Below are positions 5,587-64,000 of a stretch of 64,000 bases of DNA, in pieces; position 1 is the first letter of the stretch, and every line of letters starts with the position of its first letter. The notes under the pieces are model-generated. The model was not told the origin of the DNA and did no database searches. It worked only from the letters and a program-made list of their open reading frames with translations. This DNA is from a virus. Where the stretch lies: the IMG/VR virus record IMGVR_UViG_3300045988_051499; one strand, 5' to 3'. The position numbers and the translations under genes were made by a program.

Positions 5587-6139
5587 CAGAATATTTATTT
5601 AGTCCTTCTCTAGTCATATTAGGTACTATACTAATATAAACCTTTTCACCATCACGGTCATACGACCATATATGATTGTCTACTACATAGCTTAGAGATT
5701 TATCATATCTAGTATAGTCTAGAATAGCTTCCCAAGTAGCCATGCTGCCAGTAATACTATCCTTTTTATGTTTAGTAGCCCAGTTAAATATCCATAATAA
5801 ATGCCAAGTTCTGAAAAATGTTATACAAATCATCGGGTCCCATTCGTGTCTGGGACTGTCCCATTTATCCTTCCATCCTAATGCATGAAATCCTATATCT
5901 ATCACTGGACTATAGTAGTCTCTTCTTATGGGAAGTCCAAATGTCCAAAAGTTCTTTCTAAATAGAAAGTGGGCCTTGGGACGTTTAAAGTATTTTCTGG
6001 CTTTCCACCAGTGATACCATGGATTACGATACTCGTTCCAGCCAGGAGAAAGGAAAGGAATCTTACTATGAAAAAAGTACGACAGCTTGTAACGCAAACT
6101 GCCATACTTTTTACTAGTTAAATATTCTTTAACATTCAT
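5540..6139 (-). CDS. hypothetical protein (Trp-rich)
   Basis: 199-aa ORF; no motif recognised. Confidence 0.35.
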   Translation of the reverse strand: MNVKEYLTSKKYGSLRYKLSYFFHSKIPFLSPGWNEYRNPWYHWWKARKYFKRPKAHFLFRKNFWTFGLPIRRDYYSPVIDIGFHALGWKDKWDSPRHEWDPMICITFFRTWHLLWIFNWATKHKKDSITGSMATWEAILDYTRYDKSLSYVVDNHIWSYDRDGEKVYISIVPNMTREGLNKYSDESKHTEKDTEIGGW

Positions 6140-44556: not shown

Positions 44557-44823
44557 CTAGTTACTAATAGTATTGTTCCCATCAGAACTATTACTAGTAA
44601 TCTTACTAATTCCTTTTTCCACCATTTCATGCTCTAGCTTCTTCAAAGTTTCTACACTCTCCTCATTGAACTTATCCACTCCCAGCTCACTAATCTTATA
44701 TATCATAAGAATTTGGTGAAATCTTAGATAAGGATATTGGTCAATGATTTGACTCAATCTAGTTAATATCTTGAAATTAGCTTTCTTTCTAAATTTGATA
44801 GCTTCTTCAATTTGAGCTTCCAT
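44557..44823 (-). CDS. hypothetical protein
   Basis: 88-aa ORF. Confidence 0.3.
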   Translation of the reverse strand: MEAQIEEAIKFRKKANFKILTRLSQIIDQYPYLRFHQILMIYKISELGVDKFNEESVETLKKLEHEMVEKGISKITSNSSDGNNTISN

Positions 44824-46078: not shown

Positions 46079-46295
46079 CTTTAATTCCTAGATAATCCTT
46101 TAATAATTGAATGTTTCCTTCTCTCAAATGCCGAATAAAAGCCTCCCTTTCTCTCTCAAATAGCAGAATTTTACTCTCTAACAGGTCTATTCGTCTTTGT
46201 TGATTTTCCTCGTATTCTTCAATAGCGTCAGAAATTGCTTTAAGTATAGAAGATTCCTTCATAGCGCTACTCATTGTAGAACTCTTCGTCCCCAT
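46071..46295 (-). CDS. hypothetical protein
   Basis: 74-aa ORF. Confidence 0.3.
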   Translation of the reverse strand: MGTKSSTMSSAMKESSILKAISDAIEEYEENQQRRIDLLESKILLFEREREAFIRHLREGNIQLLKDYLGIKDE

Positions 46296-47148: not shown

Positions 47149-47823
47149 CTACTGCACAATCAAGCTATAAGCTTCTTGCAACAGTTTAATAGTTGGAACC
47201 ATACGGTTATCAACAACTATTATTTTATAAATGTTCAGAATTTCTTTGTAGGTTAAAGATGTACAAGTTAGAAATATCTGCACATCTTCGTTTACAGAAC
47301 CATTTGACAATCCCAAATCTACTTTAATCATACTGGGTAATGTTCCAATCTGAGAAATGTCCCAAGTAGATTTAGTTCTCCTGAAAACTTCCCGCTGTTT
47401 GGAAGTAAGTTGCTTTTCTTTCAATCTAGACTCAATAATAGTACCATCAAACGTTAACGAACCTCCATCGGTATTACTATTATTTAATGCTAGCTGAATC
47501 TTCTGAACTGCAGAGTCTTTAGGTTTTGGCTTAAGTTGCACTCCTTCCTTCAAGCCCTTAATAATCTGCAATGAAGGAATAAAGTCTTTTATTTGAGTTG
47601 CATTCCACACAAGAAATTTTCCAGGACTATCTTTAACAGTAACTATATACTTAGTCCCTCCGTTCAATGGAATAATCACTTGTAAGTCTGCATCACTCAT
47701 TTTACTTAAATGGTCTGATACTCTAACTTTGACGTTTCCAATGACAAAGTAGCGAGAAACAGTTGTTTCCGCTTCGATAATCTCAGTAGCAGTTGCTACT
47801 AAATACTTTTCCAATCTAGTCAT
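47149..47823 (-). CDS. hypothetical protein
   Basis: 224-aa ORF between tRNA-Glu and tRNA-Thr. Confidence 0.4.
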   Translation of the reverse strand: MTRLEKYLVATATEIIEAETTVSRYFVIGNVKVRVSDHLSKMSDADLQVIIPLNGGTKYIVTVKDSPGKFLVWNATQIKDFIPSLQIIKGLKEGVQLKPKPKDSAVQKIQLALNNSNTDGGSLTFDGTIIESRLKEKQLTSKQREVFRRTKSTWDISQIGTLPSMIKVDLGLSNGSVNEDVQIFLTCTSLTYKEILNIYKIIVVDNRMVPTIKLLQEAYSLIVQ

Positions 47824-48050: not shown

Positions 48051-48602
48051 TTACTCCAGACTAATTAAACCCTTCTCTAACATAATATGGTGATTCGGAC
48101 ATAACCATACTAAATTATTCTCGTTGTTAATCTCCTTAATAAGAGTGTCTTCGTCAAATTCTAATATTCCTTTAAGATGATGTACTTCAAGTATTGCATC
48201 AAATTCATGATTATGACAATATTGACATACTTTCTCACGTTCGGAACTTTCTAATACTCTACGAGCATTAGTCCTTATTTCTTGACATTTAGATGATAAG
48301 TACTTCTGCCCAGATGTATAATAACCTAATGTTTTGTTACCAATTCCATTAAGTTCTTCCCAGCAACTACGACACATTTCTGAATCTTTATGCTTAGGTT
48401 TACCACATCTAGGACATATCTTGTTTTCATCGTGCTTTATCCTACCTCTATTATTGTAAGAAGCAGCACACGAATGACTACAAAACTGTTTCTTCCTCAC
48501 ATCTGCGACCCTCTGATTATCTAGTACTTCGATTACCTTACCACATTCCTTACAGTGGTTAGGATTCTCATAATACAATTTAAGAGATTGTTCTCGATTC
48601 AC
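48051..48602 (-). CDS. HNH homing endonuclease
   Basis: Zn-ribbon Cys pairs and C-terminal HNH motif EVHHLKG...CPNHHIMLEKG; embedded in tRNA cluster. Confidence 0.65.
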   Translation of the reverse strand: MNREQSLKLYYENPNHCKECGKVIEVLDNQRVADVRKKQFCSHSCAASYNNRGRIKHDENKICPRCGKPKHKDSEMCRSCWEELNGIGNKTLGYYTSGQKYLSSKCQEIRTNARRVLESSEREKVCQYCHNHEFDAILEVHHLKGILEFDEDTLIKEINNENNLVWLCPNHHIMLEKGLISLE

Positions 48603-48824: not shown

Positions 48825-48849
48825 ATCGGTTGAGCTATAGCCCTGTCAT

Positions 48850-49411
48850 GTGGACCTAACGGGAGTCGAACCCGTGTCCAAACAACCCTTATTACAAGGA
48901 TAACGTGCGTCTCATTTTTATTACATCAGCTAGTGAGTTCTAGCATTTAGATAGTTTTATTAGAAGAGCTGGATTCTTTACAGTAGAGGTGAACCAGCAG
49001 TCCTCCTACTAACTAATTTACAAACTACCAAACTGGGGGGCTGACTAGAAGTCATTCTTCCACCACTCCATTTACGTTGGAGAACGTCTATTTGTAGCCC
49101 ATAGATAGGCAGTGGAGATTTCAGCTCTACTAACCTTTGGCTTTCAAGTTAATGCATCTAAGCTTCACTGTAACCTGTAGGTACTATGATTCTTCCCTGA
49201 AGGTCTCGTTATAACACTTAGATACAAACCTCTTCTGTTTCTAGGTCTCTCCAGTAACCCGACTTGATTAATAGTGTCTATTAATAAGCCAGCAGCTTAG
49301 GCTGCCATTCTTACAGGTGCAATTTCTGCAGTTATTTGTTTTCTTCGTTTAAAGAGATTGCGCTCTACACGTCCTTATAATTCGTAATCGCCTGTCAAAT
49401 CCAAGTAGGCC
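48850..49411 (-). ncRNA. ssrA: tmRNA (ssrA), one-piece, unusually long
   Basis: 5' GGGCCTACTTGGATTTGACAGGCG (cf. E. coli GGGGCUGAUUCUGGAUUCGACGGG); 3' TTTGGAC-ACGGG-TTCGACT-CCCGT-TAGGTCC-A (cf. E. coli UUUCGGAC-GCGGG-UUCAACU-CCCGC-CAGCUCC-A-CCA); acceptor 7 bp with G3-U70; tag ORF GCA GAA ATT GCA CCT GTA AGA ATG GCA GCC TAA (AEIAPVRMAA) at 49296..49328 with resume codon 84 nt from the 5' end, out-of-frame TAA 2 nt upstream as in E. coli, and stop codon in a hairpin loop GCAGC-CTAA-GCTGC. Confidence 0.7.
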
Positions 49412-49454
49412 CATGTTCCAGTTTATCTCTGATTAGAAAACTGGAGAAAAGAAA

Positions 49455-49712
49455 TTATAGCATTATAGTTGAGCCAGGAGGCAAAATTGTGACCTTACAA
49501 GTAAGCAAACGACGCGTATCCTCAACAGTAAACAGCTTAGGATAGCATAGACCGCTACGCCCACCAATGATAATTAAAGCATCTCCGTACCTCTGAACTA
49601 TAGTTCCAGGCTCCATTTCCTCGTCACAGAACCAATTTACAATCTCAGCTACATCTCCATCTTTCATATTTGTAAGATGTGTTGTGATTGTCTTATTAAT
49701 TACTTTTGCCAT
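49455..49712 (-). CDS. hypothetical protein
   Basis: 85-aa ORF. Confidence 0.35.
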   Translation of the reverse strand: MAKVINKTITTHLTNMKDGDVAEIVNWFCDEEMEPGTIVQRYGDALIIIGGRSGLCYPKLFTVEDTRRLLTCKVTILPPGSTIML

Positions 49713-50274
49713 GTAAACACTGTTTTAATATTTCCTTAGTAACTACTCTATCAGCTTCTCTAGATAGCTTATCCAACTTTTCTAAGTCAAACTCGCTAGA
49801 CTGGAACTTAAATTGAATCCAAGTTGGTTCACTAGGTCTATAGTCTAAATAAGTCTCACACTTATCAGTTCCCAAAACCTCATGCACCATAGCTAATATA
49901 CGTTCACCAGCAGCTTTAGTTTTTACGAATCCAGATAAATCATATCCAACACCTCTAGAACTCCAGTATTCTCCTTCCTCTGGACGAATGTCTTTTGGTT
50001 CCCAATGCCAGGCAGAAACACCGGACCTAGGATGAGCAATACGATGAGCATACTCCATTACGGATTCCGAATTTGGATCAGAAGGATTCTCTGGATGAGA
50101 GCCATATTGCACTATGCCTTTTCCGTTATCACTTCTTATTTCGAATGTTAGTTTACAATGTCTGCAAGTTCCAGAGGTAACTCCTCCGCAAGAGAAACAA
50201 CCACTGGTCACAGAATCACATCCACAATTAGGACAACCCCATTCCTTAAATTCTGAGAATAATATAGATAACAT
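49696..50274 (-). CDS. hypothetical Cys-rich protein
   Basis: 192 aa; N-terminal CPNCGC...CFSCGG...CRHC cluster. Confidence 0.35.
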   Translation of the reverse strand: MLSILFSEFKEWGCPNCGCDSVTSGCFSCGGVTSGTCRHCKLTFEIRSDNGKGIVQYGSHPENPSDPNSESVMEYAHRIAHPRSGVSAWHWEPKDIRPEEGEYWSSRGVGYDLSGFVKTKAAGERILAMVHEVLGTDKCETYLDYRPSEPTWIQFKFQSSEFDLEKLDKLSREADRVVTKEILKQCLHGKSN

Positions 50275-51976: not shown

Positions 51977-52220
51977 ATAGTTAATTTTCTCCACGGGTGT
52001 AGATAAGTACCCCTTTGGTACTTACCTTTTAGTAGTATCTTTACTCTAGACCTCTATAAGGAGGCGGAATAGTTCCAGAAACTAACCATGTATAGCTCTT
52101 AGAACTCTGTTCAAAATACCACTTAGCAGCTTTCTTCACAACATTAATTACTTTCTTCATAACATCAAAGTTTAAAATTGTTAATAATTAATCTAATTCA
52201 GAGCCACAAAAGGAGTTTCG

Positions 52221-52299
52221 TTGCGGAGGTAGGATTCGAACCGTTTATGACGATTTCTAGGTTATGAGCCTAGCGAGATGACCACTTCTCTACTCCACG
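52221..52299 (-). tRNA. tRNA-like, CAT anticodon, initiator-like C1-A72 but disrupted T arm (possible pseudo-tRNA)
   Basis: acceptor CGTGGAG/CTCCGCA with C1-A72 mismatch; D arm GAGA-AGTGGTCA-TCTC; perfect anticodon arm CTAGG-CTCATAA-CCTAG; T-loop TTCGAAT present but flanks AACGG/CCTAC do not pair and about 6 extra nt sit before it. Confidence 0.35.
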
Positions 52300-52724
52300 A
52301 TATTGGCAGCTACTTTACATCCGCTACCCAGGGATGCCTCTATCACCAGTGAGGCACGGACTATTCTAACCGTATAGCACGACTGGTTGGTAACGTCTCC
52401 AGACACGGCATTTAGACTGAAAATGTCGAAACAGTGATTTAAAGATTAAATAGGCTCTGGAAGATATTTCCAAATGTAGCCATACTATGATTTGGTTTTA
52501 TTCTTACAGCATCCTATAATATGACTCTATGCAGATTTATTGTCAGTAATTCCGTTATTAATTAACCATTCCTAAGCTTCTCTGGAACCAAAGAATACCT
52601 GTATAAAATTACCTGCTAAGTCATACTAAGCAATTAACTTTGCGTTACTTTTTCTAATTTTTATATTATTTGCCTTCAAAACTTTGTAAATAGTGTCTTT
52701 ACAGCACCCTATTTTTTCTTGTAT

Positions 52725-53081
52725 CTAAGAACTAGTATATCCCAATCTAGCTAATTCTACAATTTCACTATGATTGTATAGAATAGTGCCATCTCCTCCT
52801 TTAGAGGCATTGTACCCATTAGAACCATAAGTTCCTAGCTCTTTTATCCAATAGATTTCTCTTTCAGATAATTCAGAGTTACTATCTACATATTCCAATT
52901 CCTCTATCATAAAGTTCTCAACACCATACTTATTCATGGCATCATATAAAGGTCTTTTGTTGCATCTTTCTTTCTAAAAGTCATAACAATGTTCCTTCCA
53001 GCGCTCTTCTATAGAAGTAGTAGTTTTTCCTACGTATCGCTTGCTATTAATTAAATTTGTAATGCAATAAATATATGCCAT
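52725..53081 (-). CDS. GIY-YIG homing endonuclease with in-frame TAG
   Basis: MAYIYCITNLINSKRYVGKTTTSIEERWKEHCYDF-TAG-KERCNKRPLYDAMNKYGVENFMIEELEY...EIYWIKELGTYGSNGYN is co-linear with the I-TevI catalytic domain; single in-frame TAG at 52974..52976 with no frameshift. Track splits it into 52974..53237 and 52725..52937; the first ORF's N-terminus is spurious translation of the adjacent tRNA. Confidence 0.5.
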
Positions 53082-53101
53082 ATTTTTAAATTTAAAATTA
53101 G

Positions 53102-53186
53102 AATCCGTGGAGGGATTCGAACCCTCATTAAAGATTTCTCTTTTCAGTTTTGCAGACTGATGGCTAAACCATTCACCCACACGGAT
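53102..53186 (-). tRNA. atypical tRNA, GCA (Cys) anticodon with class-II long variable arm
   Basis: 85 nt; perfect acceptor ATCCGTG/CACGGAT, U73, anticodon arm TCAGT-CTGCAAA-ACTGA, 17-nt variable arm with stem AAAGA/TCTTT, T arm GAGGG-TTCGAAT-CCCTC. Confidence 0.5.
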
Positions 53187-53187
53187 A

Positions 53188-53490
53188 TTAAGATTTAAAG
53201 TACTTCTCTCTAAATGGGATATTAAATAATGAATCATTAATATCCTTATCAGTTATTTCCCTACCTAGAGCCTTCTCCGCACATTCGCTACAGATAAACA
53301 CATGGTGGTCTGGATAATAATCTTTACCTCCCCCTTTGTAATAAGAGGAGAATTTCTTTGCAGCTTCTTTTTCAAAATTGGTTAGCTTAAAGTAATTTAT
53401 TATCTTGTTCCAAACCTCATCAATAAACATTGGAGAGTTATGGTCTCCATAATAAAATTCTTTATTACATACTGTACACTTTATTTTCAT
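53188..53490 (-). CDS. hypothetical zinc-ribbon protein
   Basis: 100 aa; CTVCNK...CSEC. Confidence 0.35.
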   Translation of the reverse strand: MKIKCTVCNKEFYYGDHNSPMFIDEVWNKIINYFKLTNFEKEAAKKFSSYYKGGGKDYYPDHHVFICSECAEKALGREITDKDINDSLFNIPFREKYFKS

Positions 53491-53505
53491 AAAACTTAAA
53501 TTTTG

Positions 53506-53694: not shown

Positions 53695-54036
53695 TTAAGA
53701 TAGTAATTCCTGTGCCTCAATCTCGCCGATTATTTTAGTAACCGCAATCTTGAACGGATTTCCCTTAGTCTTGTCAAACAGATGTACATCACGTACCTCG
53801 TCAACCTTGTCAGGAACATTCACCTTTCTTTTCCCTCTCTCTATGGTCTTCCAAGTGATGACTTCGCACCGTTTCACGTCATAAACGCTATCGTTGCGGT
53901 CTACATAGACCCTGAAGAAGTTCTTCTTATGCTTCACAATCTCAACTCTTTTAAAGTTTTTGATGTTAGCATGAAATTTCAAATCGCATTTTCCGTTAGG
54001 TAAGAAAATCAATTCTGCCATAATGATACTCCGCAT
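53695..54036 (-). CDS. hypothetical protein
   Basis: 113-aa ORF. Confidence 0.35.
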   Translation of the reverse strand: MRSIIMAELIFLPNGKCDLKFHANIKNFKRVEIVKHKKNFFRVYVDRNDSVYDVKRCEVITWKTIERGKRKVNVPDKVDEVRDVHLFDKTKGNPFKIAVTKIIGEIEAQELLS

Positions 54037-54157: not shown

Positions 54158-54541
54158 TTATTCTATATAAATAAATGGTTTTCCAAATTCTTGCCTGAAA
54201 GACTCAAGCCAGCCTTCCATTTCCTCATCACTATCAAAATAGATAGACTCATCATGTCTCTCAGAGAACTCTAGAATAATATGCGGCTTCTGGTATACTA
54301 TTCCATCCTTGTAGAAGGACGTTCTCTTACTAATTGATTCGAGCATCCCTTTCTCAGAGTAAGTCCCAAAGCATGGGTCTAGAAGATACCAATAATCAAT
54401 ATGCCTTTTCCAGAATAAAAATTTGGTATCCGCTATTCTATGCTTCCATTCTGGATGTTTTCTAGTTTTAAAAACTAGTATCCTCTTTATTAAATTTCCA
54501 TTAATATATTTATCCATAATTAATCCCAATATTCTGGACAA
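54158..54541 (-). CDS. hypothetical protein
   Basis: 127-aa ORF. Confidence 0.35.
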   Translation of the reverse strand: MSRILGLIMDKYINGNLIKRILVFKTRKHPEWKHRIADTKFLFWKRHIDYWYLLDPCFGTYSEKGMLESISKRTSFYKDGIVYQKPHIILEFSERHDESIYFDSDEEMEGWLESFRQEFGKPFIYIE

Positions 54542-54936
54542 TCATCTGTCGTTAATAATCCTTTCTCGCATAGACCTCCATCATAGAATATACATGATGA
54601 GCATGAAAGATTGTCCCTGGACTCATATTCCTGAATACCTTCCTGGATATCTTTCTTAGCCTTATATCTATCTTTTCTATTCTCTTTCTTATATTCGTAC
54701 TGCATCATCTTACTTCTGTAGGGAGAAGTGCAATTCTTAAGCATTTTGGCATACTTGGAATCATTAAGAAAATCCGTAATTGATTCACAAACTCTAACCG
54801 AACCGAAAGTAAATCGTGTTCTATAATCCTTAATTCCTTTTATTGGAACATAAAATTCCTTATAAGAATTGTAGATTTTTTTAGCTCTAGAAATCCACTT
54901 TCTTTTAGAAAGCTCTCTTCTCAATTCTCTATCCAT
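54520..54936 (-). CDS. hypothetical Cys-rich protein
   Basis: track ORF 54520..55083 trimmed to internal ATG (MDRELRR...) because its first 49 codons are spurious translation of tRNA-Cys (..FVGSNPTL..); C-terminal CSSCIFYDGGLCEKG...DCPEYW. Confidence 0.35.
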   Translation of the reverse strand: MDRELRRELSKRKWISRAKKIYNSYKEFYVPIKGIKDYRTRFTFGSVRVCESITDFLNDSKYAKMLKNCTSPYRSKMMQYEYKKENRKDRYKAKKDIQEGIQEYESRDNLSCSSCIFYDGGLCEKGLLTTDDCPEYWD

Positions 54937-54956
54937 AAGCAATAAGATTAGTGTAG

Positions 54957-55030
54957 AATCTAGAGTGGGATTCGAACCCACGAAACACGGTTTTGCAGAC
55001 CGTTCCCTTAGACCGCTCGGGCATCTAGAC
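54957..55030 (-). tRNA. tRNA-Cys(GCA)
   Basis: acceptor GTCTAGA/TCTAGAT, U73, anticodon arm ACGGT-CTGCAAA-ACCGT, T arm GTGGG-TTCGAAT-CCCAC. Confidence 0.8.
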
Positions 55031-55057
55031 ATAAAGGGGAGACTAGCTCCCCAAGTT

Positions 55058-56470
55058 TTATAGTACCAAAGAGTTGTAAGCACCTCTACGATACAGAGAC
55101 GGTTTACTATTTGGATCTTTAATCCAGTAGTAATTAATTTCGTTGCCGTCTTTAGTAACTACGATTCCTAGTTTCTTGTCAATCGCAATAATTTCGTCAT
55201 CATAGAAGTCATCTCCAACTGCCAGATTTGCGAACTTAATATCCGAAGATACATAGTAATATGACAGATTGTGGAAATTGTGGCGGCGATATTCATAATA
55301 CTCGTTAAGAGCTTTTCTTTCCTCAACAGTACAGTTATCCTCATCGTCTACAATGGGCTTTGGCATCGGATTGTTGAATCTCTCAACAGCTTTGGAGAAC
55401 TCTTCAATAGAGAATTTATTCTTATCAGCAGAAATCTCACCAGCATATGCATAACCTCTAATGCAGGAATAGTCATACTCATTAGTTACTACGTTGAAGA
55501 AGCCTTTAGCTCTTCTCAATCCTTCTATACCGTGAATATTGACCTCATTAACTATAGTTTTGAGAATATCAATAGTAGATATAGTCAAAGAATCAATGAA
55601 ATCAAGCAAATCTTGACGAGCTTCCGGCACTTGAAGTGCGTCGTCCAGATATTCGTTCACAACCTTCAAATCCAAGTTGCCAAATTCCTTGACATAACGG
55701 ATTCTAGACGGACGTCCTACCATATTCTCATTGATGGTCATAGCATTAGTAGTAAGCAGGAAAACCCTGCGATACTTAGAGTTGTAAACACCGTCCATGA
55801 TTTGCAAGATAGTAGAATCCGATTCACTGAAATTCTTTTCAAATTCATCCAAGAACAGAATGCAATCTCCTTCAATACCAGAAAGGAACTCAATCATAGA
55901 TTGATTATGGTCTCCCATATCCTTTACGATAATGATGGGCAGATTTAGCTTGTTAGCCAGTTCCTTAGCAGTAACAGTCTTTCCAGTGCCCTTTGTACCA
56001 GTAAGCATAATTCCGAGATTGCCTTCTGTAGCGTGATACGTCTTAATTACATGGTCAATAAACTCGTTCTGCAAACCATACATTTTGTACGGGAATACAA
56101 ACTTATCCGCATATCTGTCTAGGTGATAACCTGTCATTGTCAGACAAATACTGTAGATTCCAACTGGGAGAGACTGCTCAACGCTATAGCCTGAGCTTAC
56201 CTGGGTATATGTAGACCCAGAACACATCCAAACTTTGTTCATTTTTTCTTTTTCTAAGTTACTTAAAACAGATGCCTGTTTGAGACATCCTACTAATTGA
56301 TTAGCTATAGAATCTATAGCTTCTTTGTTATCAGTTTCCTCTGAGAGTCTTTTTACAAACCACTCTTTAGAACGGGCAACTATTTGCTCATCAGTCTCAT
56401 TTTCAGAGATTGTTTCAGCAAATTCATGGTAGATACTAGTCAGCTTACCTTCTAATTCTTCTACGGTCAT
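55058..56470 (-). CDS. AAA+ ATPase
   Basis: Walker A GIMLTGTKGTGKTVTAKELANKL, Walker B ILFLDEFE. Confidence 0.6.
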   Translation of the reverse strand: MTVEELEGKLTSIYHEFAETISENETDEQIVARSKEWFVKRLSEETDNKEAIDSIANQLVGCLKQASVLSNLEKEKMNKVWMCSGSTYTQVSSGYSVEQSLPVGIYSICLTMTGYHLDRYADKFVFPYKMYGLQNEFIDHVIKTYHATEGNLGIMLTGTKGTGKTVTAKELANKLNLPIIIVKDMGDHNQSMIEFLSGIEGDCILFLDEFEKNFSESDSTILQIMDGVYNSKYRRVFLLTTNAMTINENMVGRPSRIRYVKEFGNLDLKVVNEYLDDALQVPEARQDLLDFIDSLTISTIDILKTIVNEVNIHGIEGLRRAKGFFNVVTNEYDYSCIRGYAYAGEISADKNKFSIEEFSKAVERFNNPMPKPIVDDEDNCTVEERKALNEYYEYRRHNFHNLSYYYVSSDIKFANLAVGDDFYDDEIIAIDKKLGIVVTKDGNEINYYWIKDPNSKPSLYRRGAYNSLVL

Positions 56471-56743: not shown

Positions 56744-57205
56744 TTAGGTTGCTTTTATTTCTTTAGCAACCTTAACCATTTCGTTATATTTCTCTACTAC
56801 CTTATTAAAGTCTTCCTCAGATATTTGAAAAACTTTGTGAGAGTTTCCATACCACTCTTCTTGACCAGGAAGCCACGTTATATTAATATATCTCTTCTTT
56901 TCTAATTCCATATGTACCTTAGATGAATCAATATAAACTGAATAGGCATCCTCTTCGATTCTACTACTTCGTGGATCTGTTGGGTCGGATGTAAGTCTGA
57001 AAAACATTGTTGACATACCATTAAAGTCTATCTTGAAACACTTTCCTATATAGCTTTTAAGTAGTGCTTTATGTCTATTGTCGCTGTCTACCTTCTCTTG
57101 GTGTCTCTTCAGTTCTTCTTCCTTAACATATTCATTATACTCTCTTAGAGTGCTGTCTGGATGCTTATCCAGATATTCTTCTATAGGACTCTTTCTTCCC
57201 CACAT
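56744..57205 (-). CDS. hypothetical protein
   Basis: 153-aa ORF. Confidence 0.35.
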   Translation of the reverse strand: MWGRKSPIEEYLDKHPDSTLREYNEYVKEEELKRHQEKVDSDNRHKALLKSYIGKCFKIDFNGMSTMFFRLTSDPTDPRSSRIEEDAYSVYIDSSKVHMELEKKRYINITWLPGQEEWYGNSHKVFQISEEDFNKVVEKYNEMVKVAKEIKAT

Positions 57206-57206
57206 A

Positions 57207-57623
57207 TTATACTACTTTAAGATGGCAATAAATACTAAATTCTGGAATTGGAATCCAAGTTGCAATACCATTGCTATCTACTGGTTTACCCTTGTTGATT
57301 GTACAAATAGTGATATGAGGTTTAGCATTTGCACAAGGCAGATATTGGTCTCCCAATTCTACTCCAAAAGCTATTGCTTTCTCAGAAATCCCTATTTTGT
57401 TTACAATTAATCGAAAATTACCATCTATACGATATTGTAGGTCATTAGCCATCTTTTCTTCATGTTGATTTTTATGGAGAAGAGTGCAATGATCTAAATA
57501 AATAGTACTTCCTCTTTGGAACACCAGATTGCAAATGATGGGATTTCCAATGATAACTTGCATAAGTTTGTTTCTAGTTGGTTCATCTAAGAACAATCCA
57601 AAATACTGATAATTCATACTCAA
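57207..57623 (-). CDS. hypothetical protein
   Basis: 138-aa ORF, TTG start. Confidence 0.35.
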   Translation of the reverse strand: MSMNYQYFGLFLDEPTRNKLMQVIIGNPIICNLVFQRGSTIYLDHCTLLHKNQHEEKMANDLQYRIDGNFRLIVNKIGISEKAIAFGVELGDQYLPCANAKPHITICTINKGKPVDSNGIATWIPIPEFSIYCHLKVV

Positions 57624-57638
57624 AAATTTAAATATTTG

Positions 57639-57711
57639 TTGGGAGTGCCAGATTCGAACTGACGACCTCTGGGCTATGCACCCAGCGAGCTGACCACTGC
57701 TCTAACTCCCA
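57639..57711 (-). tRNA. tRNA-Met/Ile(CAT) with unusual anticodon loop
   Basis: perfect acceptor TGGGAGT/ACTCCCA, D arm GAGC-AGTGGTCA-GCTC, anticodon stem CTGGG/CCCAG (three G-C pairs as in initiators but 1-72 is paired), loop TGCATAG has G at position 33. Confidence 0.55.
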
Positions 57712-57771
57712 TAGATTAATACATTGTCCTAGGCTATACCAATCTATACTATCTATCTTCCGATAAACAGA

Positions 57772-57815
57772 TGTGGACCTAGAGGGCTTTGAACCCCCGA
57801 CCTTCTGATTATGAG
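57772..57815 (-). other. tRNA 3'-half-like element (anticodon loop CTCATAA to acceptor 3' strand)
   Basis: minus strand CTCATAA-TCAGA-AGGTC-GGGGG-TTCAAAG-CCCTC-TAGGTCC-A-CA; overlaps the stop codon of the HNH gene; last 10 nt identical to the tmRNA 3' end. Confidence 0.45.
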
Positions 57816-58357
57816 TCTTTCTTTCTTATTCCTTGAATAATTCTACGAGTTAATCCAAAATGTTGCGCAACTTTCTCCCAATTCTTAAGTATTTCATACT
57901 GCTCATTTACTTCTTCTAGAGAGGGGTAATGTTTATCAGCATCTCTGCATTCCTTAGAACAGTATATCTTACCCTTAGATTTAGGAAATCTTTTGCCGCA
58001 TACTGGGCATACAGACCCAGTCATATTTTCAAAAGACGTTTTATCTTTAGCTTCAGTATTAACTAAATCCTCTACTTCGTCCATTCCCAAGTGAGGATTA
58101 TGTACTTCTCTATGACAATTAGCGCATAGAAGTTGACATTTATCTACTTCCTCTTTAAGCCTTTCTAGACTTGTATTAGATAAATGTCTCATATCTAACT
58201 GAAACTCTTTCTCATCTGGATTGATATGGTGAAATTCTAGAACAGCTATGTTTCTATCATAGCCACATAGTTCACATTTACCACCACGAGATTTTATTAG
58301 CTCTAATTTGCGCTTTAAACCTCTTAACTTTTGTGTATTATAATCATTGTAATTCAT
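57809..58357 (-). CDS. HNH homing endonuclease
   Basis: CELCGYDRNIAVLEFHHINP...CANCHREVHN HNH motif; track ORF (57809..58465, TTG) trimmed to first ATG (MNYNDYNTQK) because the upstream part overlaps a tRNA-like structure. Confidence 0.6.
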   Translation of the reverse strand: MNYNDYNTQKLRGLKRKLELIKSRGGKCELCGYDRNIAVLEFHHINPDEKEFQLDMRHLSNTSLERLKEEVDKCQLLCANCHREVHNPHLGMDEVEDLVNTEAKDKTSFENMTGSVCPVCGKRFPKSKGKIYCSKECRDADKHYPSLEEVNEQYEILKNWEKVAQHFGLTRRIIQGIRKKDS

Positions 58358-58430
58358 ATACAAATATATATGAAAATAATCATAATACCAAATGTTTTGG
58401 TGCAAAATTAAAAATTCAATCCAGAAGTTG

Positions 58431-58507
58431 TAGGGACGGTGGGGTTTGAACCCACGTGCGACCAACTACCCTTTCTACAAGGTATAAGCTTGAGGGGATA
58501 CGTCCCT
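58431..58507 (-). other. tRNA-like element lacking a D arm (acceptor plus T arm minihelix with internal hairpin)
   Basis: perfect 7-bp acceptor AGGGACG/CGTCCCT, T arm GTGGG-TTCAAAC-CCCAC, A73; internal hairpin CCCT-CAAG-CTTATAC-CTTG-..-AGGG with a 7-nt anticodon-like loop; no D stem can be formed. Confidence 0.35.
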
Positions 58508-58525
58508 ATCTGACTCATAATTAGT

Positions 58526-58553
58526 TGCTCTGACCTGGCTGAGCTATAGGTCC
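58526..58553 (-). other. tRNA 5'-half-like element (acceptor 5' strand plus D arm)
   Basis: GGACCTA-TA-GCTC-AGCCAGGTCA-GAGC-A; acceptor strand perfectly complementary over 7 nt to TAGGTCC of the 3'-half element at 57775..57781, about 720 nt away on the other side of the HNH gene. Confidence 0.4.
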
Positions 58554-58631
58554 GATTTAGTCTCACTATCGTAGGACTATAAGCTCCCAACGTCCGACTG
58601 GCTACGGAAGGTTATTTACCGGTCTAATAAC

Positions 58632-63799: not shown

Positions 63800-63999
63800 T
63801 CAAATTCTCCTACATTGAAGTGTCTGGCAAAACAAGCTTCGAATACGAGTTTGCCAAACTGAGTTGATACATATTTGGCAATCTCCTCAGATTTGCACGC
63901 AAGCAACCCGACAGCGGAACCGGCCGCGCCGACGCCATAGCCAGAACCGAAACAGCCGAGACCCGCAATGCCGCCACTAACCGCGCGGCCGCCCACCAA
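63787..63999 (-). CDS. glycine-zipper protein (partial; N-terminus may lie beyond the window)
   Basis: Gly/Ala-rich GxxxG repeats; GC-rich codons explain the local GC jump. Confidence 0.3.
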   Translation of the reverse strand: MVGGRAVSGGIAGLGCFGSGYGVGAAGSAVGLLACKSEEIAKYVSTQFGKLVFEACFARHFNVGEFEWLD

Positions 64000-64000
64000 C

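Follow-up and report, generated by a model that had tools for sequence, protein, structure and literature searches.

The stretch of DNA considered in this report, to which we refer as the window, comprises 64,000 nucleotides of the IMG/VR virus record IMGVR_UViG_3300045988_051499. All of its genes are oriented on the minus strand and are largely those of replication and nucleotide metabolism, among them PolA, NrdD, RNA and DNA ligases, helicases, a primase, a sigma factor, NAMPT and Prs. At the DNA level the window is matched only by unannotated contigs from human faeces that are filed as "Bacteriophage sp.". The closest genomes measure 152-189 kb (the best proxy being 185 kb), and other IMG/VR relatives reach 193 kb. 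PolA shares 45-52% identity with its counterparts in crAss-like phages, and the terminase of the closest genome shares 27-29% identity with crAss-like terminases. The phage is probably a large crAss-like gut phage of the Zeta group, a group described as having genomes of 145-192 kb, many mobile endonucleases and reassignment of TAG or TGA mostly in late genes (Yutin et al. 2021, PMC7886860). Exact protein and exact DNA pattern searches of IMG/VR and the JGI metagenomes yielded nothing that extends the window's own genome, and the closest contig, of 185 kb, was covered over 66.5-106.7 kb.

Between two tRNA genes of the window lies a GIY-YIG endonuclease gene (Table 1) with six in-frame TAG triplets in its 211 codons; translation of the minus strand reveals no TAA, TGA or frameshift within the frame. 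A preliminary description of this DNA had placed a GIY-YIG reading frame at 52725-53081 and considered it to be interrupted only by the TAG at 52974..52976. The continuity of the frame across that triplet is confirmed (..EERWKEHCYDF-TAG-KERCNKRPLYDAMNKYGVENF.. on the minus strand), and position 53081 is the start of the ATG, but the other boundary coincides with the second of the six TAGs rather than with the end of the gene, 92 more codons with four further TAGs being traversed before the TAA is reached; the strand had been left unstated. The resemblance of both flanks of the first TAG to the I-TevI type of catalytic domain, also put forward at that stage, is borne out by a match to Pfam family PF01541 that runs unbroken through residues 1-91 (48.7 bits; cut-off, 22.6) and by the alignment of residues 4-93 with the I-TevI structures 1LN0 and 1MK0 (E about 1e-9). 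The catalytic residues Y5, Y16, R27, H31, E75 and N91 are kept, are invariant in 21 homologues and align with I-TevI, whose Y6, Y17, R27, E75 and N90 all have equivalents in the window's enzyme. Matches of the region that follows to the families HTH_28 and HTH_23 fall below the Pfam cut-offs (E = 0.036-0.048), and the C-terminal half of the protein, conserved across homologues, has been exchanged as a unit in L011 and P0017. Taken by its sequence, the gene product is an intact homing endonuclease of the I-TevI/Seg type, in which a GIY-YIG domain with the same catalytic residues is joined to a modular, putatively DNA-binding C-terminal part, although its likeness to I-TevI itself amounts to about 30% identity and is confined to the catalytic domain.

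Table 1. Features of the endonuclease locus (window coordinates) and the suppressor tRNA genes of a close relative (L084 coordinates)
Feature	Position	Strand	Remarks
GIY-YIG endonuclease CDS	52446..53081	-	211 codons, ATG at 53081, TAA at 52446-52448; from translation
GIY-YIG catalytic domain, codons 1-91	52809..53081	-	Pfam PF01541; I-TevI alignment
Putative helix-turn-helix segment, codons 106-138	52668..52766	-	Weak Pfam HTH_28, HTH_23
C-terminal putative DNA-binding domain, codons 139-211	52449..52667	-	Replaced by another in L011 and P0017
In-frame TAG 1, codon 36	52974..52976	-	Q, R or TAG in close homologues
In-frame TAG 2, codon 119	52725..52727	-	L004 has Q (CAR codon), L005 TAG, others K
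In-frame TAG 3, codon 152	52626..52628	-	Gln column, invariant in alignment A1
In-frame TAG 4, codon 170	52572..52574	-	L005 has TAG as well; other homologues A, S, V or Q
In-frame TAG 5, codon 185	52527..52529	-	Variable region
In-frame TAG 6, codon 199	52485..52487	-	A or C in most homologues
tRNA-Cys(GCA), 86 nt, long extra arm	53101..53186	-	ARAGORN/Rfam; 20 nt upstream of endonuclease ATG
tRNA-Met(CAT), 80 nt	52220..52299	-	ARAGORN/Rfam; downstream of endonuclease
Insertion/deletion cassette, 1,135 nt	52364..53498	-	blastn boundaries
tRNA(CUA)	L084 6752-6822	+	Rfam, 57.2 bits
tRNA(CUA)	L084 c4311-4383	opposite strand	Rfam, 66.5 bits

No intron family was found in the 64-kb window by an Rfam scan at the gathering threshold. 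Given this result and the position of the gene between the tRNA-Cys and tRNA-Met genes, the endonuclease gene is considered to be free-standing; the alternative of an intron-encoded enzyme was rejected on the strength of the same scan and of the completeness of both flanking tRNAs.

When the gene is read in the standard code, its longest open piece is 87 amino acids, and homing endonucleases often decay once they have become fixed. Such a gene might have been killed by nonsense mutations and be on its way to being lost, and yet the signs of decay are missing from it. Each of its stops is a TAG, with no TAA, TGA or indel; by our own estimate, the chance that six random nonsense mutations would all be TAG is about (1/3)^6 = 0.0014. 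The catalytic residues are intact, and all six TAGs are preserved in three independent assemblies, namely a faecal contig from Mexico (L001, 100% identity over 1 kb), a 146-kb Logan contig (L002, three nucleotide differences in the gene) and a 185-kb IMG/VR contig (L003, 97% identity in the gene). The protein collection holds 985 homologues; hundreds are full-length, at 209-214 amino acids, and many of these are 60-75% identical to the window's enzyme. Close full-length homologues in IMG/VR (at least 15) bear 2-6 in-frame TAGs at differing columns, and distant full-length homologues from other phages, the DNA of which was examined, bear none. Comparison of the window's gene with homologues that have their TAGs elsewhere gave dN of 0.24-0.58 with dS > 1.3, and dN was far below dS also in the segment after the first TAG and in the segment after the second, each taken separately, which indicates that selection acts on the full-length protein. 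Together with the suppressor tRNAs and the recoded essential genes of the closest genomes, to which we turn below, these observations make a pseudogene extremely improbable and agree with the earlier judgement that the gene is neither frameshifted nor decayed. We consider it highly probable that the gene is functional and that its TAGs are read as sense codons.

A means of reading them is encoded nearby in the relatives. The window was said at the outset to have 20 or more tRNA genes but none with a CTA anticodon; the absence of that anticodon holds for all of the 19 tRNAs called by ARAGORN and for the 21 tRNA matches plus a tmRNA from Rfam. It had been suggested that a suppressor for TAG to Gln recoding would lie elsewhere, and in the closest contig (IMGVR_UViG_3300045988_050967) two tRNA(CUA) genes are indeed located ~6.5 and ~9 kb past the right end of the window. 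Both are kept in five of the five closest genomes (L083-L086 and L088), save that one copy in L088 has the anticodon TTA. The tRNA(CUA) on the opposite strand lies close to where a block of divergent transcription begins, and it matches the tRNA-Gln(UUG) of the same phage at 79% identity; the one on the plus strand heads the tRNA array, in the same orientation as the array, and is at most 67% identical to any isoacceptor. The divergent block continues, 10 kb further on, into late genes in which TAG is abundant within frames (L151): the terminase large subunit has 20 in 787 codons, the portal 28 in 723 codons, and other ORFs 4-12 each. From the tRNA(CUA) genes and the heavily recoded terminase and portal genes we conclude that the lineage uses code 15, with the proviso that the suppressor tRNAs and recoded late genes belong to mosaic relatives (85-98% identical) and not to the window's own genome. 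A call of a tRNA(CTA) in L005 had a poor anticodon stem and was dropped as evidence.

Recoding of TAG to Gln with phage-borne suppressor tRNAs is established in crAss-like phages, including those of the Zeta group (Yutin et al. 2021, PMC7886860), and has been described in crAss-like gut phages by others as well (Borges et al. 2021, bioRxiv 10.1101/2021.08.26.457843). In their tRNA(CUA) genes, in the TAGs of the terminase and portal genes and in a replication block that is free of TAG, the relatives and the window together resemble these code-15 phages, as they do in genome size (152-193 kb for the related genomes), in the number of their tRNAs and in the number of their mobile endonucleases.

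We infer that Gln is the amino acid inserted at the TAGs of the endonuclease, as in code 15. Among the homologues no residue is enriched opposite TAG as strongly as Gln (3.4-fold), although several TAGs align with other residues, and the third TAG of the window's gene falls on column 171 of another alignment, where Q occurs in 17 sequences and M in 9; L004-L007 have CAA or CAG there. Close homologues favour Gln at three of the six TAG positions, but the other three align with A, C, K or S, so that the assignment rests partly on the tRNA evidence. Decoding of TAG, at least in part, as some residue other than Gln, for example by the second tRNA(CUA), would accommodate these three positions and the lack of any close isoacceptor for the plus-strand tRNA. 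It would also accommodate a distant homologue (L048 10001-10651) in which TAG occupies two Tyr columns, one of them invariant (31/31), and which might be either a decaying copy or an indication that TAG is read otherwise in that phage. We think such decoding quite unlikely here, in view of the clear resemblance of the other suppressor to tRNA-Gln, the Gln enrichment and the TAG on an invariant Gln column, and of metaproteomic evidence that TAG specifies Gln in crAss-like phages (Peters et al. 2022, PMC9523058).

The rest of the window was surveyed as 89 non-overlapping minus-strand ORFs of at least 80 amino acids (about 18,000 codons, excluding the endonuclease). These contain 517 CAA or CAG codons and no in-frame TAG, as against six TAGs and two CAA/CAG codons in the endonuclease (Fisher P = 1e-12). 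TAG did not behave as an ordinary terminator either: the 89 ORFs end with TAA in 57 cases, with TGA in 28 and with TAG in four, and in the three TAG-ended genes that were examined (47149-47151, 46267-46269 and 44557-44559, minus strand) a back-up TAA or TGA lies 5-8 codons downstream. With a suppressor present, those three genes would gain only a short tail. Since in-frame TAG is absent and TAG stops are rare and backed up, the block of 89 ORFs reads correctly in either code, and since these ORFs all lack in-frame TAG, no gene of the 64-kb window other than the endonuclease depends on amber decoding. The relatives repeat the pattern, their tRNA-region GIY-YIG homologues carrying TAGs and the neighbouring genes none. 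Two ORFs of the tRNA region with weak HNH endonuclease signatures (48051-48602 and 57809-58465, minus strand) are TAG-free, from which it follows that recoding is not general to the mobile nucleases of this phage.

The endonuclease gene belongs to a cassette that is itself present or absent at an otherwise conserved site, as expected of a mobile element. Besides the endonuclease gene, the cassette includes the 86-nt tRNA-Cys and a 100-amino-acid zinc-ribbon ORF (53188-53490). L006 has 132 nt in its place and L004, over a slightly different interval (window 52408-53504), a different 281 nt, with conserved flanks (85-95% identity) in both. A second GIY-YIG paralogue, with three in-frame TAGs, is found in L001 (3389-4106 on the minus strand of that contig), inserted at the point corresponding to window ~52222-52237, right after the tRNA-Met; L011 carries a chimera of the two paralogues and lacks that tRNA-Met, and P0017 combines the N-terminal half of the window's enzyme with another C-terminal half. 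Further copies occur between tRNA genes at other sites in L004 and L003 (14933-15589). This record of gain, loss, domain swapping and dispersal among the tRNA genes could mean that the cassette arrived recently, whether out of another code-15 phage or out of a recoded late region, and that its TAGs reflect its source rather than an adaptation to the present site. Such an origin is possible but on the whole unlikely as the explanation of the TAGs, homologues keeping their TAGs wherever they are sited in the tRNA region; it is compatible with the explanation that we favour and does not exclude it.

The explanation that we favour is that the six TAGs are sense codons read by a phage amber suppressor derived from tRNA-Gln. 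As the sequence itself makes plain, translation in the standard code of the host would stop at the first TAG, giving a product of 35 residues that ends before the catalytic residues Glu75 and Asn91. Inasmuch as the TAGs need a phage-encoded amber suppressor, the full enzyme of 211 residues would be made only when tRNA(CUA) is present, and the amber codons might serve as a translational lock by which the nuclease is delayed or limited until the suppressor has accumulated. The enzyme would then cut tRNA-region alleles without the endonuclease in co-infecting relatives. That target is a likely one by analogy with SegB, which sits in the tRNA gene cluster of phage T4 and cuts endonuclease-less alleles in the T4 tRNA region, the T4 enzymes being encoded in the standard code. 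The window's gene further resembles the Seg genes of T4 in being free-standing between tRNA genes and in being present in some related phages and absent from others.

A regulatory role for the amber codons is a proposal in which we have somewhat more doubt than confidence. The placement of the TAGs is in its favour: all 15 of the homologues with TAGs have the first of them no later than codon 44 (P = 0.00035 if placement were random, shared ancestry being ignored), and the ratio of TAG to CAR codons is 20:11 in the first 40 codons and 39:63 in the rest (P = 0.013, again ignoring shared ancestry). A wider generalization, according to which the GIY-YIG homologues of code-15 crAss-like phages have evolved an N-terminal amber lock, in which at least one TAG among the first ~40 codons precedes most of the catalytic residues, appears to us doubtful at present. 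The plus-strand tRNA(CUA) complicates the matter, since its orientation along the tRNA array makes co-expression with the endonuclease possible; any role in timing would be the weaker for that, as this tRNA could supply suppression early.

The same tRNA enters into the case for neutral codon drift, under which the gene would be recoded and functional and its TAGs without regulatory role. In a phage in which TAG stands for Gln at every translation of the gene, TAG and CAG or CAA would interchange freely, and an endonuclease that evolves fast and moves horizontally would accumulate TAGs. In keeping with this, TAG positions turn over rapidly among the homologues, and the TAG share of Gln codons in the endonuclease (6/8) is similar to that in the terminase (20/36) and portal (28/57). 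Drift is a real possibility, if one that we think falls short of probable: it does not by itself predict the enrichment of TAG in the first 40 codons, and the 89 neighbouring ORFs, exposed to the same mutational regime, have not one TAG among their 517 Gln codons, so that something must set the endonuclease apart.

Published descriptions of code 15 in crAss-like phages stress the late structural and lysis genes, and the present case differs from them in that the recoded gene lies inside a block compatible with the standard code, as the sole one of its kind in 64 kb. Its nearest parallel is in the Agate phages, where a group I intron endonuclease residing in an early gene prefers the recoded stop codon TGA, and where it was proposed that the recoded stop withholds the enzyme until late in infection (Borges et al. 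2021, bioRxiv 10.1101/2021.08.26.457843). In both instances a homing endonuclease among early genes prefers the reassigned stop. The Agate enzyme is intron-encoded, belongs to another clade of phages and depends on TGA to Trp reassignment, whereas that of the window is free-standing between tRNA genes and depends on TAG to Gln; the window's endonuclease is thus the TAG-based, free-standing, crAss-like counterpart of the Agate TGA endonuclease. Recoding as a means of regulating mobile elements has therefore been raised once before, for TGA, and what may be new here is modest, namely that a single gene depends on amber decoding in a block that either code can read, and that its homologues may have an N-terminal amber bias.

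A 2025 study of Zeta phages reported idle-looking suppressors, rare TAG stops with back-up stops and variable endonucleases; the stop-codon content of the endonuclease genes was not reported there (PMC12386605). The present phages agree with those in having TAG as a rare terminator with a back-up stop, a tRNA-Sup-CTA and endonucleases that differ between close genomes, but differ from them in that suppression is clearly in use, in the terminase, the portal and the endonuclease. If the amber lock exists, a selfish and potentially harmful nuclease would be tied to the phage's own suppressor tRNA and the element would be confined to recoded phages. The code switch would then be exploited, and in part maintained, by mobile elements in addition to the late structural and lysis genes, and this might have to do with the retention of seemingly idle suppressor tRNAs in some Zeta phages. 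Likewise, if the N-terminal bias holds, recoding would be a regulatory resource for mobile elements besides late genes. As no other gene of its dual-code block of 64 kb is amber-dependent, the endonuclease might also serve as a natural reporter of the timing of the code switch during infection.

The gene has consequences for annotation as well. The standard code splits it or causes it to be called a pseudogene, and the public code-15 gene call (P0001, 263 amino acids), in which the product is already translated with Q at TAG, overextends it across a tRNA. Other candidates from code-15 calling were rejected as presumed artefacts, their sequences not being protein-like in appearance: a TAG-containing public-pipeline call of 203 amino acids upstream of 53695-54036, and 5' extensions at 57809-58615, 54520-55485, 56744-57400 and 57207-57884. 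An ORF of 192 amino acids (window 49696-50274, minus strand) has TGG at codon 89 where the otherwise identical gene of L002 (12963-13541) has TAG, a difference of one base that is uninformative on Gln.

Several additional features of the tRNA region and its surroundings deserve mention. The long extra arm of the tRNA-Cys that adjoins the endonuclease is unusual for a tRNA-Cys, and the window has a second tRNA-Cys(GCA) at 54956-55030 (minus strand). A tRNA-like element at 58431-58507 (minus strand; Rfam tRNA, 31.7 bits) shares its sequence in part with the 5' end of the HNH ORF at 57809-58465. Its acceptor and T arms are good, but its anticodon loop has 6 nt; it probably represents a tRNA that has degenerated, and it was rejected as a suppressor on account of that loop and the lack of a CTA anticodon. 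The tmRNA of the window (48848-49412, minus strand; RF00023, 70.4 bits) spans 565 nt as compared with the 374 positions of the model, and so has extra sequence inside; it was not called by ARAGORN, which did call a tmRNA in the relative L010 (1492-2006). The final stretch of the window, at 63900-64000, is strongly G+C-rich in a genome of 36% G+C, and a related ORF in L003 (3320-3880) has a segment rich in Gly, Asp and Ala.

In the relatives, a RAGATH-14 RNA (RF03145), a motif for which we know of no function, is found at L084 6549-6720 (plus strand; 173 bits, gathering score 149), directly upstream of the plus-strand tRNA(CUA) and ~6.6 kb past the right end of the window. The recoded terminase (L151 11982-14345) has four of its 20 TAGs inside the first 35 codons, and several other late ORFs of L151 have a TAG within the first 15-60 codons, in an echo of the N-terminal bias among the endonuclease homologues. 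The L088 tRNA with the TTA anticodon (5902-5972, plus strand), which takes the place of the plus-strand tRNA(CUA) and has one base of the anticodon different, is a potential ochre (TAA) suppressor.
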